Origin: Escherichia phage vB_EcoM_G2540
Sequence record: MK327936.1
Reading direction: 5' to 3' (one strand)
DNA: 64,000 nt
Positions 10,739 to 52,115 of the stretch are shown one piece after another (positions within the stretch are counted from its first letter, which is position 1; each line of letters begins with the position of its first letter). The position numbers were made by a program, and so were the translations under genes. A model generated the notes under the pieces. It saw only the letters and a program-made list of their open reading frames with translations. It had not been told where the DNA came from and searched no databases.

Positions 10739-11017
10739 TCAAAATGTAATTTCTAACCAATCACCATCACGCTGATCACTATTGACTTTAAAGCTAAATC
10801 CTTCTTTTCTAAGCCAATCACCAATTTCTTCAGTAATCAATTTATCGCGAGCAGTACAATAATAACTAAAATGTGTTTTACCTTGTTCAGCTGCTTTATT
10901 AGCAAGTTCCGAAAAATCTTTAATAAAACACTCTAGCTTAAACTGTTTACTTTTAAGTGCTTTTTCGCGTAATTGATTAGCAAAAGATTCATTTTCATAA
11001 AGATCATACTGTTCCAT
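10739..11017 (-). CDS. Hypothetical protein (T4 24.2 position)
   Basis: 92 aa ORF with ATG start, tightly packed between rnlB and next ORF. Confidence 0.55.
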   Translation of the reverse strand: MEQYDLYENESFANQLREKALKSKQFKLECFIKDFSELANKAAEQGKTHFSYYCTARDKLITEEIGDWLRKEGFSFKVNSDQRDGDWLEITF

Positions 11018-11219
11018 TTTTCACCTTTTTATTGATATGTCTTTTTCTATAGACAACTTTTTCTCGAGTTTCAAACTTATTCTTAGCAGTCATAGCTCGA
11101 GCCCATAATACAGCTACTTCTTTCGCCTGTAAGTTTAATTCACGAGCAATTTCAATGAATGACTTTCCAGACTCATGAAGAGTAAACACCACAACCTCAG
11201 TTCTCATAATCAATCTCAT
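11004..11219 (-). CDS. Hypothetical small basic protein (T4 24.3 position)
   Basis: 71 aa ORF, basic C-terminus; overlaps downstream ORF by 14 nt. Confidence 0.5.
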   Translation of the reverse strand: MRLIMRTEVVVFTLHESGKSFIEIARELNLQAKEVAVLWARAMTAKNKFETREKVVYRKRHINKKVKNGTV

Positions 11220-11309
11220 GTTATCGAGTTGGTGCCATTATATACATCATTTTCTGAGTGTGTTTTGTGTGCTTTCAAAATGAAGAAAGGGGGCCGAAGC
11301 CCCTTATGA

Positions 11310-23885: not shown

Positions 23886-25943
23886 CTACATTTTGAACTT
23901 TTTAGACATTCCGTTGATGTTAACCAAAGAAGCTAATATTTGAGAAACTTCGTTTTCCTCTTCTTTTGATTCTTCTACAAGGAATTGATTAAATCCAGCC
24001 ATTGGACGAACTTCACCAGTTTCCATTAAATGGTCGCCATCATATACTGATTCTTCTAATTGTTCAGAAGGAGGAACGATTGTACCTTCGATTAGATACT
24101 TGTTATAAGCAGTTTCTTTCATAAAGTACGTACTTACTTTATTAATCTTTAGTAAAATTCCGCGCGGTAGAATAACTTCAGCTTCTGATGGAAATCCTGA
24201 TAAATGACCTGGAACGATAACTTTGATTCGCTCAGCTCCTTTAATTACCATACCCACGCTAGTTTCAGCATCTTCATTAGCATATGTAGAATGACTACCC
24301 ATATGCATCAAATCTTCTGCATCAACGGAATCTTCTCCTTCACCAGAAAATACTGCGCCGGAATCATCTAGAGCCATATAGTTTTTACCATGCTCACCGA
24401 AGATATTTGGTTTAAGCGATGTGGATACGAAGTTCTTGAAATAAAACATTTTATTTTCAATGTTATGACGCAAAGTTTTAAAGGTAACTTCTTGTCCACG
24501 GTAAAGCGTAGTTCCTGGAGGAAGAACTGAACCTTTAGCGAATGCAGAATCCAACGTCTCGATGTGCTTAATAGCACGTTCCATATATTCTTCACGGGTA
24601 GAATCTGGTTTACCCAAAAGGAACGAGTTCATTTCAACATATGAATCAGCACAATAATCTTCAATTACGTCAGATTCAGCCTGAGTTAATCCTTTTGGAG
24701 TTACTTCGGTGCTTGCGTATTCATACGCCTGGGCGGCAGATTCATTAATCAATTTATAAATGCCATTCATGACGAATTGAATAATAGCTGTCTTTTCATC
24801 TGGCGTGGCTTTAGAACCTTTAACTAAATCATTAATAATTTTCTTAATAACATCAAAGCTATTAGAAATATTAATGTCAGCAAGATCGCTTAAAATTTTA
24901 TCAGTTTTATAATCAAAGAATTCTTTATTCTTTAAATATTCTTGAGAACCTTGATATGTTATATCGCTCTGCAGCTTGATAGATGGATCACGTAAACGCG
25001 CATGGGCCAATGCGATATGATTTCGGAAGTTTTCTAGTTCATAATCGCTAGATTTAAAACGAGAAGCACTCCTCATACCACCAATAGCTCCTTTGCTGAA
25101 GTTTGAACCAATCTGAATAACGCCAGAGTTCATTGGTCCTTCTGCTTTATACACCGGAACTTTAAATTCAAACTCTTGATATTTCTTAGCAGCGAAGCTA
25201 TCACCCTGAAGTGAAGCATCGACAGTAGAATATTGAGCTTGTGCTGCTAATCGACGACTGATTTTAGTTTTCTGAATAACAGCTTGGTCCGTGCGTTTAT
25301 CATTTTCTAAAGCAATAGAAGCAGCAACAGCGACAGCTTTAGGAACAGCATTTCCTGTTTTAACGTCTACATAAACATCACCGACCTTTGATTCAACTTT
25401 TGTGAATAACTCAGTTGAAATAGGAGGTACACCTGGAATGTCTTCTAAATTGGCATTTTTACGGTAAACCATAATATATGCGTACTTTTTATCGTAATCC
25501 CAGATTTCCTTTAAAAGAACATATCGACCTGCTCCTTTAGTACGTACTAAACGGTCAGCAATAACTTGCATTTGACGAGCAGCGCCATTTGTTTTACTCT
25601 TTAGTACGCGAAATAAGCATGCATCAATTTTATACTGTTTCATTGTTTGAAGAGCAGTATCAAAAACAGCATTAATGACGCCAATTGGATTTCCACCCAA
25701 GTTTTTAAGCTTAACTAACGATAATTTCTCGTTGACACCTATCATTACGATATGCATCATTTTATCGCCTGGCTTAACGTTTTTATTCGTATCACCGCCA
25801 GAGGTGTATGTACAAAATCTAAATCCAGGAAGCACGCTTTCTTCACCGGCTTGAATAGCAAAAATTTGTGGTATTTTATGCTTAGGATTTAAGTTAACAA
25901 CCGGCGCCGAAGCGCCGTCAAATAATTCTGTAATAAGTTCCAT
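23886..25943 (-). CDS. Alt-family NAD-protein ADP-ribosyltransferase, paralog A (685 aa)
   Basis: N-terminus MELITELFDG...; C-terminal ART motifs: LYRGQ (Arg), FVSTSL (STS), SEAEVILPRG (E-x-E). Confidence 0.85.
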   Translation of the reverse strand: MELITELFDGASAPVVNLNPKHKIPQIFAIQAGEESVLPGFRFCTYTSGGDTNKNVKPGDKMMHIVMIGVNEKLSLVKLKNLGGNPIGVINAVFDTALQTMKQYKIDACLFRVLKSKTNGAARQMQVIADRLVRTKGAGRYVLLKEIWDYDKKYAYIMVYRKNANLEDIPGVPPISTELFTKVESKVGDVYVDVKTGNAVPKAVAVAASIALENDKRTDQAVIQKTKISRRLAAQAQYSTVDASLQGDSFAAKKYQEFEFKVPVYKAEGPMNSGVIQIGSNFSKGAIGGMRSASRFKSSDYELENFRNHIALAHARLRDPSIKLQSDITYQGSQEYLKNKEFFDYKTDKILSDLADINISNSFDVIKKIINDLVKGSKATPDEKTAIIQFVMNGIYKLINESAAQAYEYASTEVTPKGLTQAESDVIEDYCADSYVEMNSFLLGKPDSTREEYMERAIKHIETLDSAFAKGSVLPPGTTLYRGQEVTFKTLRHNIENKMFYFKNFVSTSLKPNIFGEHGKNYMALDDSGAVFSGEGEDSVDAEDLMHMGSHSTYANEDAETSVGMVIKGAERIKVIVPGHLSGFPSEAEVILPRGILLKINKVSTYFMKETAYNKYLIEGTIVPPSEQLEESVYDGDHLMETGEVRPMAGFNQFLVEESKEEENEVSQILASLVNINGMSKKFKM

Positions 25944-30861: not shown

Positions 30862-31322
30862 AGAGAGTCTCTTAATAGGTTTAACACATCAATAAATTCA
30901 GCTTCGGTTAGTATTGTATCATCTTTTGTTAGACCACTAGCCATGCTGTGCTTCAAAACTTTTCCTTTCGAGGCTTGTAATGCATCGCGAAAGCCCCTAT
31001 TTTGGATCGCTGCTTCAAAATATGCATTTGTGTATAATTCTTTCCACGCTGGGGAGTATCTTGAAAATGGAACTCCAAGCCAGAAGAGGGTCCCACGGTC
31101 CTGAGCTCTAGCATAAGACCTTCCAGCTTGTTGGGCGGCAAGCCCAGATAACCCAAATATACGACGTTGTTGTTCAACGTTTTTCACCTTGCATCCTTGG
31201 AGGAATCCTTCAAGACCTCCAAATTGAATACCATCCATAACGAAAGGCCAATGGGCGAAATTACTTAATGCGCATGATGGCCACCTAAAATTGCTTCTAA
31301 TCTCTAACTCAGACATTTTCAA
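30858..31322 (-). CDS. NADAR (YbiA/DUF1768)-family protein, 154 aa (30.3 position)
   Basis: Motif LSNFAHWPFVMDG resembles the FSNFAAWP...DG signature of E. coli YbiA-type NADAR domains (from recall, not searched). Confidence 0.6.
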   Translation of the reverse strand: MKMSELEIRSNFRWPSCALSNFAHWPFVMDGIQFGGLEGFLQGCKVKNVEQQRRIFGLSGLAAQQAGRSYARAQDRGTLFWLGVPFSRYSPAWKELYTNAYFEAAIQNRGFRDALQASKGKVLKHSMASGLTKDDTILTEAEFIDVLNLLRDSL

Positions 31323-31325
31323 TGC

Positions 31326-31502
31326 TTATAATTTCAACATCAGCCCAATGACCATAGCAAGGAAGACGAAATTCAACTGGCCATCTAATATAATAGACTC
31401 AACTTGTGGTTCTTCGTGTTCATCAGTATACGGATTTTTATCTGTTACTTTATATGTGACCTTAATGTACTGAATTCCAAAAATCTTATTAATTATATTC
31501 AT
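31326..31502 (-). CDS. Small hydrophobic-tailed ORF, 58 aa (not in track)
   Basis: Manual translation MNIINKIFGIQYIKVTYKVTDKNPYTDEHEEPQVESIILDGQLNFVFLAMVIGLMLKL; ATGA overlap with upstream ORF stop. Confidence 0.35.
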   Translation of the reverse strand: MNIINKIFGIQYIKVTYKVTDKNPYTDEHEEPQVESIILDGQLNFVFLAMVIGLMLKL

Positions 31503-43138: not shown

Positions 43139-45402
43139 TACAATTTACACGCTGCGCAATCATCGGCTTTTGGAGTTTCTATTTCATAATCATCAGTACC
43201 GGAACCATCACGAGTATTATGATAATAGAAATTTTTTCCGCCAAAATACCAGAAATACAAAAGGTCATCAATCATTATTGACATTGGAACCTTTCCTTTT
43301 GGAAAAATCTGCGGGTCATAGTATGTATTTGCTGAAGCTGATTGACATACCCATTTCAACATAATAGCTACCTGCGTAAGATAAGGTTTATTACCTTTCT
43401 TAGCTAATTTCCACGTATAATCATATAAGTCTATGTTATGCTCAATATTGGGCACGACTTGATTAAAGGAACCCTCTTTTGATTCTTTAACAGAGACTGG
43501 TCCACGTGGAGGCTCGATACCGTTTGTACTGTTAGAAACTTGGGAAGATGACTCACATGGCATAAGTGCTGATAATGTGCTATTACGGATGCCAAAGAGC
43601 TTAAGGTCTTCCCGCAGCGACGACCAGTCACAAACGTATTTTGGAGCTGCGATTTGGTCAATCTTTTTATTGTACCAGTCGATAGGTAATTCGCCTCGAG
43701 ACCAACGAGTGTCTGAATAATATTCGCAAGGTCCTTTTTCTTTGGCGAGCTTAATGGATGCTTTAATGAGTCCATACTGTAATCTCTCAAATAGTTCATG
43801 TGTTAAATCGTTAGCATCTTCATAAGAAGCAAAGTTACTTGCCAGCCAAGCCGCATAGTTAGTAACACCTACACCGAGGTTACGACGCTTTTTAGCTTTT
43901 TCTGCTTCAGGAACTGGATATCCTTGGTAATCCAAAAGATTATCAAGAGCACGAACTTGAACTTCTGCCAATTCATTAATTTTATCTTGGTCTTGCCAGT
44001 CAAAATTATCTAATACGAATGCAGAGAGAGTACACAATCCAATTTCAGCATCAGGACTATTCACATCATTTGTTGGAATAGCAATTTCACAGCACAAGTT
44101 ACTCTGACGAATAGGTGCCTTTTCACGAATAAACGGAGTGTAGTTATTCGTATTATCAATGAACTGCACATAAATCCTTGCTGTTCCTGAACGTTCAGTC
44201 ATGAGCAATTCAAATAGTTCACGGGCTTTAATACGCTTTTTACGAATATTAGGGTCTTTTTCTGCTGCTTCGTATAATTCACGGAAACGGTCTTGGTCTT
44301 TAAAATAAGAATAATAAAGCTCGCCACCCATTTCATGCGGACTGAACAAAGTAATGTAATCGTTCTTTCCAAAACGTTCCATCATTAGGTCATTCAGTTG
44401 AACACCATAATCCATATGACGAATGCGGTTTTCTTCTACGCCTTTGTTATTTTTCAAAACGAGAAGATTTTCAACTTCCAAATGCCAAATAGGATAATAA
44501 GCAGTAGCAGCGCCGCCACGAATTCCACCCTGTGAACATGATTTAACTGCAGTCTGAAAATGTTTCCAAAAAGGAATAACACCAGTATGGCGTACTTCAC
44601 CCATGCCAATCTTAGAACCTTCAGCACGAATCATACCAACGTTAATACCAATTCCAGCGCGTTTAGAGATATATTCAACAATTGAAGCGGAAGCCTTATT
44701 GATAGACTTCAATGAATCTCCTGCCTCAATAACAACACATGAACTAAACTGTCGAGTCGGAGTACGGCAACCAGCCATAATAGGAGTTGGCAATGAAATC
44801 TGTCGAGTAGATACTGCTTCATAAAAACGGATAACATGTTTTAATCTATCAACAGGTTCATCTTGATGCAATGCCATTCCAATAGCCATAAATGCAAACT
44901 GTGGAGTTTCATAAATTTGACCAGTGGTTTTATCTTTAACTAGATATTTTTCTTTTAATTGCATCGCCCCGGAATAAGTAAATTCCATATCCCGTTCGTG
45001 CTTAATTTTTGATTCTAAAAATGTAATTTCTTCTGCTGAATATTTTGACAATAATTCAGGGTCATATTTACCTTCATTTACGCAGTAAGAAATATGGTCA
45101 ATAAATGAACGTGGTTCATACTGCCCATAAACATGCTTACGAAGAGCAAACATTAAACAGCGGGCAGCTACATATTGGTAATCAGGCTCTTCAACCGAAA
45201 TAGAATTCGCAGCAGCCTTAATGACAATAGTCTGAATATCATCAGTTGTCATTCCATCACGGAGATAAGATTTAATGTTTTCATATAATTCATAAGGATC
45301 TACTGATGTTCCTTCAGCTGCCCAAGATAAAACTTTAATAATTTTTTGTGGGTCAAAGCTCTGAGAAACACCACTACTTTTGATAACATTAATTAATTGC
45401 AT
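43138..45402 (-). CDS. nrdA: Ribonucleotide reductase alpha subunit NrdA (754 aa)
   Basis: 754 aa; N-terminus [21 protein letters not shown] and C-terminal redox Cys pair ...DDCAACKL. Confidence 0.95.
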   Translation of the reverse strand: MQLINVIKSSGVSQSFDPQKIIKVLSWAAEGTSVDPYELYENIKSYLRDGMTTDDIQTIVIKAAANSISVEEPDYQYVAARCLMFALRKHVYGQYEPRSFIDHISYCVNEGKYDPELLSKYSAEEITFLESKIKHERDMEFTYSGAMQLKEKYLVKDKTTGQIYETPQFAFMAIGMALHQDEPVDRLKHVIRFYEAVSTRQISLPTPIMAGCRTPTRQFSSCVVIEAGDSLKSINKASASIVEYISKRAGIGINVGMIRAEGSKIGMGEVRHTGVIPFWKHFQTAVKSCSQGGIRGGAATAYYPIWHLEVENLLVLKNNKGVEENRIRHMDYGVQLNDLMMERFGKNDYITLFSPHEMGGELYYSYFKDQDRFRELYEAAEKDPNIRKKRIKARELFELLMTERSGTARIYVQFIDNTNNYTPFIREKAPIRQSNLCCEIAIPTNDVNSPDAEIGLCTLSAFVLDNFDWQDQDKINELAEVQVRALDNLLDYQGYPVPEAEKAKKRRNLGVGVTNYAAWLASNFASYEDANDLTHELFERLQYGLIKASIKLAKEKGPCEYYSDTRWSRGELPIDWYNKKIDQIAAPKYVCDWSSLREDLKLFGIRNSTLSALMPCESSSQVSNSTNGIEPPRGPVSVKESKEGSFNQVVPNIEHNIDLYDYTWKLAKKGNKPYLTQVAIMLKWVCQSASANTYYDPQIFPKGKVPMSIMIDDLLYFWYFGGKNFYYHNTRDGSGTDDYEIETPKADDCAACKL

Positions 45403-45719
45403 AAGTCCTCAACTTGAAAATCGTCTTTAAACAATCGGTTAACTATATGAGCTATTATATCACCATGACACGGCTTTGGTTTACATGTGCATCCTAGCCT
45501 CATTCCACGTAAAGGCTCTAAATGTGCTTTAGTTATTTCTCCGGATTTAATTCGACGTATAAAATCTTTTTTGAATAATTCAATGGCAGCCTCCCGGCTG
45601 CCAGCATCTTTACCGACGTAATTTCCCCAAAATGTACCGCGGTGAATATTAACATCAAAGTCGGATTTGTATTTATTCACTACCCGGCATAGACGGCCCG
45701 GTTGGTAATAATTCTTCAT
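45393..45719 (-). CDS. Hypothetical protein with Cys/His cluster (nrdA.1 position)
   Basis: 108 aa; motif [12 protein letters not shown]. Confidence 0.5.
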
Positions 45720-45948
45720 ATTGTTTTTCCGTTAAAACAGTAATATCGTAGTAACAGTCAGAAGAAGTTTTAACTGTGGAAATTTTATTATCAAAATACT
45801 CACGAGTCATTTTATGAGTATAATATTTTTTGCCATAAATGATAATAGGCTGATTTGGTCCTGGAACTTCTAACTCGCTTGGGTTAGGAAGTGTAAAAAG
45901 AACAACGTCAGAAGTATCTTTAAATCGTAAAATCATAAATCCTCGCAA
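45673..45948 (-). CDS. Hypothetical protein (nrdA.2 position)
   Basis: 91 aa ORF overlapping the previous by 47 nt. Confidence 0.4.
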
Positions 45949-46268: not shown

Positions 46269-47284
46269 CATTATGTTCAGATAAGGTCGTTAATCTTACC
46301 CCGGAATTATATCCAGCTACATGTCACCATGCAGAGCAGACTATATCTCCAACTTGTTAAAGCAAGTTGTCTATCGTTTCGAGTCACTTGACCCTACTCC
46401 CCAAAGGGATAGTCGTTAGGCATTTATGTAGAACCAATTCCATTTATCAGATTTTACACGATAAGTAACTAATCCAGACGAAATTTTAAAATGTCTAGCT
46501 GCATCTGCTGCACATTCAAAAATAACCCCATCACATGAAATCTTTTTAATATTACTAGGCTTTTTACCTTTCATCTTTTCTGATATTTTAGATTTAGTTA
46601 TGTCTGAATGCTTATGATTAAAGAATGAATTATTTTCACCTGAACGATTTCTGCATTTACTACAAGTATAAGCAGAAGTTTGTATGCGAACACCGCACTT
46701 ACAAAACTTATGGGTTTCTGGATTCCAACGCCCATTTTTACTTCCGGGTTTACTGTAAAGAGCTTTCCGACCATCAGGTCCAAGTTTAAGCATCTTAGCT
46801 TTAACAGTTTCAGAACGTTTCTTAATAATTTCTTCTTTTAATGGATGCGTAGAACATGTATCACCAAACGTTGCATCAGCAATATTGTATCCATTAATTT
46901 TAGAATTAAGCTCTTTAATCCAAAAATTTTCTCGTTCAATAATCAAATCTTTCTCATATGGAATTTCTTCCAAAATAGAACATTCAAACACATTACCATG
47001 TTTGTTAAAAGACCTCTGAAGTTTTATAGAAGAATGGCATCCTTTTTCTAAATCTTTAAAATGCCTCTTCCATCTCTTTTCAAAATCTTTAGCACTTCCT
47101 ACATATACTTTATTGTTTAAAGTATTTTTAATCTGATAAATTCCGCTTTTCATAAATACCTCTTTGAATATAGAAGTATTTATTAAAGGGCAGTCCTACA
47201 ATTTAGCACGGGATTGTCTACTAGAGAGTTTCCCCGTTTAGATAGATTACAAGTATAAGTCACCTTATACTCAGGCCTCAATTA
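46269..47284 (-). mobile_element. Self-splicing group I intron in td (1016 nt) carrying the I-TevI ORF
   Basis: Exon 1 ends ...TTGGGT at 47285, followed on the coding strand by TAATTGAGGCCTGAGTATAAGGTGACTTATACTTG; intron ends ...AATG before exon 2; length 1016 nt. Confidence 0.9.
46416..47153 (-). CDS. GIY-YIG homing endonuclease I-TevI (245 aa), intron-encoded
   Basis: 245 aa; N-terminal GIY-YIG (SGIYQIKNTLNNKVYVGSA), zinc finger CKCG...CSKC, C-terminal HTH DNA-binding region; matches recalled I-TevI. Confidence 0.92.
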   Translation of the reverse strand: MKSGIYQIKNTLNNKVYVGSAKDFEKRWKRHFKDLEKGCHSSIKLQRSFNKHGNVFECSILEEIPYEKDLIIERENFWIKELNSKINGYNIADATFGDTCSTHPLKEEIIKKRSETVKAKMLKLGPDGRKALYSKPGSKNGRWNPETHKFCKCGVRIQTSAYTCSKCRNRSGENNSFFNHKHSDITKSKISEKMKGKKPSNIKKISCDGVIFECAADAARHFKISSGLVTYRVKSDKWNWFYINA

Positions 47285-49428: not shown

Positions 49429-49671
49429 TCAAACAGACTTTTTCACAGTTTTCCAATCAGCTTTAAACTGCTCGACGTCAGAATGGTAAATCCAGAATCC
49501 TGCGCTTTCTCCGTCTTCATAAAGAGGACATCCATCGCATTCATCTTCCCATCCCATATCACGTAAAAGATGTTCAGCTTTTTCAACAAGTTCAGAATCT
49601 TTACCGATGATATTAAAATACCATTTACCTCTAACTTCTGAATCTTTGATGCTCTGGCGTTGTAATCTCAT
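49429..49671 (-). CDS. Hypothetical protein (frd.3 position)
   Basis: 80 aa ORF. Confidence 0.5.
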   Translation of the reverse strand: MRLQRQSIKDSEVRGKWYFNIIGKDSELVEKAEHLLRDMGWEDECDGCPLYEDGESAGFWIYHSDVEQFKADWKTVKKSV

Positions 49672-49725
49672 TTTATTCTCCTTAATTGATAGGGTAATAG
49701 TATCACGCTACTACCCTTCTGTAAA

Positions 49726-49935
49726 CTACTTTTTAAAAGTTTTTCGCAAAAGTTCAATGATTTCATCTACATTGTTTTCGTCAACAATGCAGTGAATTTT
49801 TGTTACGCCAGAAACCGGGTCTTTGACTTCATCTTTTTCAGAAGTCGGTTCTTTATACTCACGAAAACAATGAAATTCGTCTTCGCAAATTTCTAAAAGT
49901 CTATCTTTGAGGTAAAATGTTTTCCATTTGCGCAT
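49726..49935 (-). CDS. Hypothetical protein
   Basis: 69 aa ORF; overlaps next ORF by 43 nt. Confidence 0.4.
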   Translation of the reverse strand: MRKWKTFYLKDRLLEICEDEFHCFREYKEPTSEKDEVKDPVSGVTKIHCIVDENNVDEIIELLRKTFKK

Positions 49936-50105
49936 TCAATGTGTTTTACTGCTTTATATCCATTAGCGACGGAAACTTCTTTAACTTCAAACCATCCGCC
50001 ATTCTCTCGAATGGCTTTAACTATTGATGAATTAGAACGTGGGCTATAATTAATAAATGTATCAATAAGTCTTGGAACAAGTTCATACTTTTTACCGGTA
50101 TACAT
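49893..50105 (-). CDS. Hypothetical protein
   Basis: 70 aa ORF. Confidence 0.4.
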   Translation of the reverse strand: MYTGKKYELVPRLIDTFINYSPRSNSSIVKAIRENGGWFEVKEVSVANGYKAVKHIECANGKHFTSKIDF

Positions 50106-50149
50106 TACGGTTTCCTCATTTTAACGGGGCGGTAATAGCCCCTTGATAA

Positions 50150-50377
50150 TTATTGTTCAATCAGTCCCATGTAAAATTCTGCGTCTTCAGAATCCATGTC
50201 ATCACAATATTCATTAGCCATAAAGAGGGTGAGGTCTTCAAGAGGACCTTTAATAACGATTTGAATACTCCAAAACTTAGAATCTTGCACGCTTGTGATA
50301 CTAAGTTCAGGATAACGATTACGAATAATCTCTTCAATATATTCAAAATCAACGATGTCAATATCAACTTTAGCCAT
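50150..50377 (-). CDS. Hypothetical acidic protein, 75 aa
   Basis: Internal ATG at 50377 with GAGGA SD chosen; the longer track ORF would run through the gene 32 terminator hairpin. Confidence 0.45.
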
Positions 50378-50482: not shown

Positions 50483-50501
50483 GGGGACCTCTAGGGTCCC
50501 C
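50483..50501 (-). terminator. Intrinsic terminator downstream of gene 32
   Basis: Minus strand GGGGACC-loop-GGTCCCC followed by TTTTTTTTATTTC. Confidence 0.75.
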
Positions 50502-50525: not shown

Positions 50526-51431
50526 TTAAAGGTCATTCAAAAGGTCATCCAGGTCCGTGTCATCAGCACTAGATGAACTGCCAGAGCTTGAGCTCATAAA
50601 ATCATCTTCAGTTTTTGTTTTGAAGTCATCAACATTGAATGCATCCAAATCATCAGCAACTTTATCAGCTTTCTTAGCGGCAGTTGCTGCGGCACCGCCC
50701 ATCACAGCAGTTCCCATGACTTGACCGAATTTAGTGCTCAGTTCTTCAAATGATTTGAATTTATCTTTAGAAGTCATTTCAGAAAGGTCAACCATTTGTT
50801 CGAACAGTTCTTTCTGGAAAGATTCATCATCAATGTTTGGAATCGCAGATTGATTCAGGAATTTAGATTCGTCGTAGTTACTAAATCCAGAAACCTGTTT
50901 AACTTTCAGTACAAAGTTAGCACCTTCCCACGGACAAGTTACATCAACTGGAGTTTCACCCATTTCAACATCAACCGCAATCATTGCATTGATTTTATCC
51001 CAGATTTTCTTACCAAAACGGTATTTAAATACTTTACCTTCATTTTCTGGAGCAGCTGGGTCTTTTACAACAAGAATGTTAGCCCAGTAAGAAGTTTTAC
51101 GTTTAACAAGACTGTACTCTTTATTGTCAGTGTTGTACAGATCATTTTTACTGATGTATTGACATACTGGGCAAGAATCGTAATCACCATGGGTAGATGA
51201 ACATGTTTCAATATACCATTTACCATTTTTCTTGAAACCGTGATTTACAAGAATTGCGAATGGTGCTTGTTCATCATTTTTAGACGGAAGAAAACGAATT
51301 ACTGCTTGACCGTTACCCGCATTATCGAGTTTCAGTTTCCACTCGCCTTTATCTTCAGAAGAAAAACCTTTATTGCCATTCAGTTTAGCCATTTGTGCAG
51401 CAAGTTCAGCAGTAGATTTACGTTTAAACAT
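50526..51431 (-). CDS. 32: Single-stranded DNA-binding protein gp32 (301 aa)
   Basis: 301 aa; [47 protein letters not shown] matches T4 gp32; Ser/Asp-rich acidic C-terminus. Confidence 0.95.
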
Positions 51432-51490
51432 TTTTATTTCCTTTTTAATTTAATTAACAGTTGGTGCTATGACACTTTACCTCATAGCTG
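51432..51490 (-). promoter_or_regulatory. Gene 32 translational operator (A/U-rich unstructured region plus upstream pseudoknot)
   Basis: 5' UTR reads AUGAGGUAAAGUGUCAUAGCACCAACUGUUAAUUAAAUUAAAAAGGAAAUAAAA-AUG, matching the recalled gp32 autoregulatory leader. Confidence 0.65.
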
Positions 51491-52114
51491 GCATAATTCG
51501 CAATACTCTGGGTCTTCGAGAGGTATCCAACCCGAGTTGAAATACTTTACCATCGATTTAGCAGTTGTATCAGTTATATTTATATTACCTTTAACTCTTC
51601 GCCATCCAGGAGTTTTACCGTACAGATTAGAGGATAATAATAACACATAATTCTCGTAAGCAATATGAGATAATTTCCAAGACTCTATATTAGCTCGTGA
51701 TGTTTTCCAAGGTCTGAAATCGTCACGGTTCATATAATTAGCCAATCTCATATGCTCTCTAACTTCCGGGTCTTTAGCTGGGTGAGTTTCACCACTCACA
51801 CCAAATCCGCCGCCAGCATATACCAGATTAAAATAGTCTGGATTATCTCTGGCATTTACTTCAAGTTGGTATTTTCGCTCTGCTTCAATAACATCCAAAT
51901 CATCATCAATTTGAATTATTTTAACGCTCGGTTTTTGAAGCATTACCGCATTTAAAAATCTTTTTTGTTTACACGAACTCCAGTATTCCTTTCCGGAAGA
52001 GTCATATATTATTCCGTTCTCAAATGAGCAATTTAATTTACTACCGATATAGTAGTATGGCGGAGTCTTATTTTTGACACGGTCTTCAAATGTAAACCAA
52101 TATACTATATTCAT
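51482..52114 (-). CDS. segG: GIY-YIG (Seg-type) homing endonuclease-like protein, 210 aa
   Basis: N-terminus NIVYWFTFEDRVKNKTPPYYYIGSK resembles GIY-(10)-YIG; inserted between genes 32 and 59. Confidence 0.65.
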   Translation of the reverse strand: MNIVYWFTFEDRVKNKTPPYYYIGSKLNCSFENGIIYDSSGKEYWSSCKQKRFLNAVMLQKPSVKIIQIDDDLDVIEAERKYQLEVNARDNPDYFNLVYAGGGFGVSGETHPAKDPEVREHMRLANYMNRDDFRPWKTSRANIESWKLSHIAYENYVLLLSSNLYGKTPGWRRVKGNINITDTTAKSMVKYFNSGWIPLEDPEYCELCQL

Positions 52115-52115
52115 A

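Follow-up and report, generated by a model that had tools for sequence, protein, structure and literature searches.

The two small ORFs that lie downstream of gene 32 in the genome of Escherichia phage vB_EcoM_G2540 are almost certainly consecutive halves of one gene, frd.2, and not two genes. The deposited copy of this gene lacks a single T residue in a short homopolymer run, and the stretch analysed here, referred to below as the window, comprises 64,000 nucleotides of the sequence record MK327936.1. The initial annotation had described two ORFs of 69 and 70 aa downstream of gene 32 that overlap by 43 nt in different frames, and both the ORF list and the sequence confirmed this description; ORF 1 and ORF 2 are encoded by the minus strand and share positions 49893-49935. 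An exact protein look-up identified ORF 1 as QBO63480.1 (G2540_00246) and ORF 2 as QBO63479.1 (G2540_00245), both of phage vB_EcoM_G2540. The coordinates of these ORFs and of the other features discussed are listed in Table 1.

Table 1. Features of the frd.2 region in the window, and the related deletion in phage G2540-3.
Feature	Position	Strand	Basis or remark
ORF 1	49893..50105	-	70 aa; ORF list
ORF 2	49726..49935	-	69 aa; ORF list
frd.2 (Pfam FRD2, PHROG 622), interrupted by 1-nt deletion	49726..50105	-	380 nt, compared with 381 nt in PP01
Frameshift site, run of four T	49914..49917	-	CATTTTAC, compared with a run of five T in intact relatives, CATTTTTAC; pairwise alignment; reads AAAA on the plus strand
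Shine-Dalgarno GAGG of frd.2	50114..50117	-	read from sequence (aaaatGAGGaaaccgtaATG); 8 nt upstream of ATG 50105-50103
Hairpin GGGGC-tattacc-GCCCC, frd.3/frd.2 spacer	50126..50142	-	read from sequence; identical in PP01
Hairpin, frd.2/frd.1 spacer	49691..49717	-	repeat search; 10-nt arms, 90% complementary; also after T4 frd.2
Coding-region hairpin inside frd.2	49846-49898	-	~14-bp stem, dG -16.7 kcal/mol, z -2.3 relative to shuffles
gene 32	50526..51431	-	upstream of frd.3
frd.3	50150..50377	-	Pfam Phage_FRD3, E 1.4e-37
frd.1	49429..49671		DUF5417; downstream of frd.2
nrdA.1 deletion of G2540-3	31302-31338 of the MK327944.1 locus (L005); record positions 141301-141337		corresponds to window 45609-45646

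The nature of the interruption became apparent when the window was aligned with phage PP01, its closest annotated relative, in which one frd.2 CDS, 381 nt long and encoding 126 aa, fills the corresponding interval between frd.3 and frd.1 (BBC14578.1, a member of an 87-member cluster at 90% identity). The two genes are identical at 379 of 381 positions, and they differ only by the missing T and by a synonymous TTT/TTC substitution close to the 3' end; PP01 has five T residues at the site and one ORF, whereas the window has four T residues and two ORFs. The same 1-nt gap was seen in the alignment with phage G2540-3. When one T was restored to the run, the window encoded a protein identical to PP01 Frd.2 at all 126 residues, in support of the suggestion, made in the initial annotation, that the ORF pair represents one gene with a frameshift or sequencing error. 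ORF 1 consists of native Frd.2 residues 1-64 followed by six out-of-frame residues (TSKIDF) and a premature TAG at 49895-49893, and ORF 2 begins at an ATG (49935-49933) with six out-of-frame residues (MRKWKT) and continues with native residues 64-126, so that the translated PP01 gene corresponds to residues 1-64 of ORF 1 joined straight to residues 8-69 of ORF 2. Past the missing base, the upstream frame runs through six further sense codons before it reaches the TAG, and an ATG is present in the downstream frame six codons before the break. The 43-nt overlap thus needs no special explanation, the downstream-frame ATG being there by chance.

Comparison with protein family profiles led to the same reading. 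ORF 1 matched positions 2-41 of the 96-position Pfam FRD2 profile (PF03197) with a score of 42.2 bits and ORF 2 matched positions 45-96 with 72.3 bits, both above the curated cut-off of 29 bits, and the repaired protein matched positions 2-96 with 116 bits (E 1.3e-33); T4 Frd.2, used as a control, scored 133 bits. Likewise, ORF 1 and ORF 2 covered positions 4-67 and 72-132, respectively, of the 132-position phrog_622 profile, which the repaired protein matched with an E value of 4.5e-40. The matches of the two ORFs are consecutive and do not overlap, as would be expected of one domain-level family match rather than two. Because a single added T restores a protein identical to that of PP01 and the ORFs match consecutive parts of one domain, we conclude that they derive from a single gene, and ORF 2 is not an independent gene.

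The genes around the ORF pair are those expected of frd.2. The conserved order gene 32 - frd.3 - frd.2 - frd.1 - ... - frd in the window agrees with the annotated PP01 and T4 genomes, and frd.1 is followed by a DUF7247 gene, an ORF of PHROG 3183 and frd itself, which encodes dihydrofolate reductase (DHFR match). Megablast with the locus matched hundreds of T4-like phages, the phage of the window belonging to the genus Tequatrovirus. The gene is thus a known, named and widely conserved small early gene of T4-like phages, and nothing about it is new in kind. The single uninterrupted ORF of approximately 119-133 aa that is a feature of the family is absent from the window owing to the 1-nt deletion; apart from ORF continuity, the window copy agrees with the FRD2 family in everything that was tested, and it is a broken or miscalled member of that family.

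T4 Frd.2 (NC_000866; 128 aa) belongs to the same Pfam family, occupies the same place in the gene order and is 65% identical to the repaired protein over its full length. The C-terminal 57 residues are nearly identical in the two proteins, which have diverged in the N-terminal half and in a central acidic segment; the frd.2 of T4 is unbroken. An AlphaFold3 study has placed T4 Frd.2 in one family with GoF and MotB.1 and predicted an N-terminal LSm/SH3-like five-stranded beta-barrel (residues 1-88) followed by a C-terminal domain (PMC12152347). A search of solved structures by sequence with the repaired protein detected no related structure. The break at residue 64/65 aligns with T4 residue 63/64 and lies where a central segment begins whose length differs between relatives (forms of 119-128 aa). 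According to the published model, the break would fall inside the N-terminal domain, and neither ORF would contain a complete predicted domain.

The interrupted form of frd.2 was sought among other phages. A tblastn search with the repaired protein matched 751 phage records, and in 750 of these, whose identities range from 100% to about 32%, at least 80% of the protein was covered in one place. Sixty rows of this search, sampled evenly down the ranking, were inspected for continuity, and 58 of the sampled matches were uninterrupted single pieces. The two exceptions were a partial match (21% of the query) and a record of the laboratory 'mutant T4 clone T4_7t1' with four small indels in frd.2. 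The genuine overlapping pair proposed as the other option in the initial annotation is therefore rejected, since relatives have a single uninterrupted ORF at this position. The T4_7t1 record (OL964745.1, 'Mutant Escherichia phage T4 clone T4_7t1', positions 270-700) has four deletions in frd.2 relative to T4, one of 1 nt in a run of six A residues, one of 2 nt and two of 3 nt, and its annotated frd.2 CDS is shortened to 309 nt; either its assembly is of low accuracy or the clone is heavily mutated.

Nucleotide searches gave a corresponding result for the deletion allele. With an 81-nt blastn query around the site, no ungapped perfect match was found in any record, and the best 60 matches all span 82 nt, the form with five T residues. 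Megablast with a 37-nt query that had the deletion at its centre, and that required a 28-nt exact word across the site, gave no match in 50,697 phage records, whereas the intact 38-mer, which served as a positive control, matched 12 phage records at 100% identity. In a collection of 15 billion proteins, each of the two split proteins was present in one contig, that of G2540 only, and the repaired protein was present in 10 contigs and in the 87-member cluster. From these searches, the frd.2 frameshift is private to the G2540 record.

The signals for expression of the region were also read from the sequence. The GAGG motif is the sole Shine-Dalgarno sequence for the ORF pair, and T4 frd.2 is preceded by the same motif. 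No GGAG- or GAGG-type sequence is present upstream of the ORF 2 ATG, which in intact relatives is out of frame, within the codons GAA TGC (E-C). After the premature stop, there is no alternative in-frame ATG, GTG or TTG until the very end of the gene. Taken at face value, the window would therefore give rise to a 70-aa truncated product and to essentially none of the second half. A simple terminator scan detected one match, which follows gene 32 (50483-50501). The stem-loops in the two spacers beside frd.2 may be candidate RNA-stability or processing elements. The hairpin inside the coding region overlaps the junction between the variable and conserved parts of Frd.2, and 4 of 200 shuffled sequences folded as well, which places it marginally above chance.

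Two readings would give the ORF arrangement a biological role, and we consider both very improbable. One could envisage a genuine overlapping pair, or a functionally split frd.2, in which ORF 2 is translated by termination-reinitiation at its ATG, 40 nt upstream of the ORF 1 stop. Both ORFs are indeed open and have ATG starts, and in bacteria reinitiation at nearby start codons that lack a Shine-Dalgarno sequence was reportedly described by Adhin and van Duin in 1990. However, the ORF 2 ATG lacks such a sequence and does not lie in frame in any intact relative, and the arrangement was found in no other genome. The split also cuts a single Pfam domain as well as the region that the published T4 Frd.2 model assigns to one beta-barrel domain (PMC12152347). 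The other reading, to which we assign a similarly slight probability, holds that programmed -1 ribosomal frameshifting or transcriptional slippage occurs at the T run and that the 70-aa product is a regulated second isoform. A -1 slip of tRNA-Phe on U UUU A (CAU UUU ACC to CAU UUU UAC) would give exactly the wild-type protein, and the coding-region hairpin lies downstream of the run. Slippage of this kind, however, would restore the frame after any homopolymer deletion and is not a sign of programming. The zero frame reads A CAU UUU ACC, with no X XXY YYZ heptamer, and thus allows a single-tRNA slip only. The hairpin starts about 15 nt past the run, compared with the usual spacing of 5-9 nt between slip site and structure, and its sequence also occurs in relatives that have the intact frame. 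Four T residues are far too few for efficient slippage by RNA polymerase, and the site is unique to one record, whereas recoding sites are conserved among relatives. The likeness to E. coli dnaX-type -1 frameshift sites is confined to a homopolymer-type slip site in coding sequence with a hairpin somewhere downstream; unlike those sites, the window has no tandem-slippery heptamer, no correct hairpin spacing, no identified upstream Shine-Dalgarno-like stimulator and no conservation. The hairpin, being marginal, mis-spaced and present in intact relatives, was rejected as a recoding signal.

A second deletion that bears on the cause of the missing T was found in G2540-3 (MK327944.1), a phage from the same sample and study. 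Its genome carries a private 1-nt deletion, which reduces a run of four C residues to three and splits nrdA.1, a gene of 108 aa that is intact in both the window and PP01. The deletion allele was found in MK327944.1 only, and the intact allele in 460 phage records. The split nrdA.1 is like the split frd.2 in that both are private 1-nt deletions in a short homopolymer of a small conserved gene, reported in the same study; it differs in that another gene of another genome is affected, and it bears on the likely cause alone. Whether artefact or mutation, the nrdA.1 deletion seems to be of one kind with that in frd.2. In the window, nrdA.2 (45673-45936, minus strand) and nrdA.1 (45396-45719, minus strand) overlap by 47 nt in different frames, the nrdA.1 start being a putative upstream ATG; this overlap is also annotated in PP01 (positions 47097-47143 of the PP01 locus, L003) and is thus shared with at least one relative, unlike the frd.2 split.

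We lean slightly toward a homopolymer miscall in the G2540 assembly over a real mutation as the cause of the missing T, because a private homopolymer deletion is also present in nrdA.1 of the sister phage G2540-3, a genome reported in the same study, and we give the miscall about an even chance. If it is correct, the G2540 phage itself would make the normal 126-aa Frd.2, and a single erroneous base would have led the ORF finder to report two ORFs in its place. Several points favour a miscall: the deletion allele is private and lies inside a homopolymer, frd.2 exhibits no other decay (the sole other change being synonymous), the gene is intact in all but one of the 751 phage records, and the phages of the source study were sequenced by 'either Illumina or PacBio RS II' (PMC6563267). 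On the other hand, Illumina and polished PacBio consensus normally get a run of only five T residues right. Frameshift scans across the 64-kb window against PP01 or G2540-3 also found no other conserved gene to be broken, arguing that the assembly is not generally error-prone, and a generally error-ridden assembly was rejected on these grounds. When run symmetrically, the scan detected two frameshifts in G2540-3 and a single one, that of frd.2, in the window, but none in PP01, a result that speaks for a miscall. The other scan matches were a natural 13-nt variant in a small ORF near 31383 and, near 45630, the break that belongs to G2540-3 and not to the window.

The rival explanation is a real, very recent loss-of-function frameshift of frd.2 in the G2540 stock, whose chances we put a little short of even. 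The deposited sequence does contain the deletion, and the rest of the window is without another broken conserved gene; homopolymer runs are natural hot spots for frameshifts, and the break borders the segment whose length differs between relatives. In addition, frd.2 amber mutants of T4 plate at normal efficiency (PMC12152347), indicating that a null is viable in the laboratory. In contrast, translational knock-down of frd.2 by CRISPRi-ART lowered the fitness of T4, and the screen scored frd.2, but no other gene of unknown function, as 'Fit' (PMC11879866), so that a true null in a healthy broad-host-range isolate would be somewhat unexpected. The absence of the allele from every other record and of secondary decay from this one likewise speaks against a real frameshift, as does the similar private homopolymer deletion in the sister genome, which suggests a technical cause, although the private deletions in both sister genomes could be real mutations. 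If the deletion is real, the frd.2 Shine-Dalgarno sequence would direct synthesis of the 70-aa product (residues 1-64 plus TSKIDF), which would stop short of the end of the predicted N-terminal beta-barrel and would have none of the C-terminal part. Translation of the second half would then be limited to rare -1 slips on U UUU A that would regenerate the wild-type sequence HFYLKD. It is conceivable, at rather less than even odds, that the deletion is real and that G2540 is a natural broad-host-range isolate without functional Frd.2 or, alternatively, one in which a trickle of the full-length protein is made through low-level -1 slippage at this site.

For annotation, G2540_00245 and G2540_00246 should be merged as one frd.2 that is flagged as frameshifted or in need of sequence correction; otherwise, the split will spread through databases as two 'hypothetical proteins'. 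Should the deletion prove real, G2540 would be a ready-made natural frd.2 knock-out with which the role of Frd.2 could be probed. The value of such a null would be modest, given that frd.2 is universal in T4-like phages, that its function is unknown, and that the results on its dispensability in two recent studies conflict.

Three other observations were made in the window. A 210-aa ORF between gene 32 and gene 59 (51482-52114, minus strand) matched PHROG 7504, 'homing endonuclease', over its full length (E 1.9e-133), and had no Pfam match. The BLAST alignments to PP01 and G2540-3 stop at 51491 and restart at 52115, both phages being without this ORF. The ORF looks like a mobile insertion at the position that segG occupies in T4. 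A small ORF at 31312-31502 (minus strand) is a homologue of a 68-aa ORF of G2540-3 in the gene 30.4 region and has a different C-terminus as the result of a 13-nt indel; this region is mosaic among relatives, and the indel is probably natural variation. Finally, a 685-aa ORF at 23889-25943 (minus strand) corresponds to PP01_203, a hypothetical gene beside alt. In G2540-3 (positions 10896-11281 of its locus, L005), it is represented by short remnant ORFs, with a run of five T residues changed to four, which suggests that the gene has decayed or been replaced in that phage.
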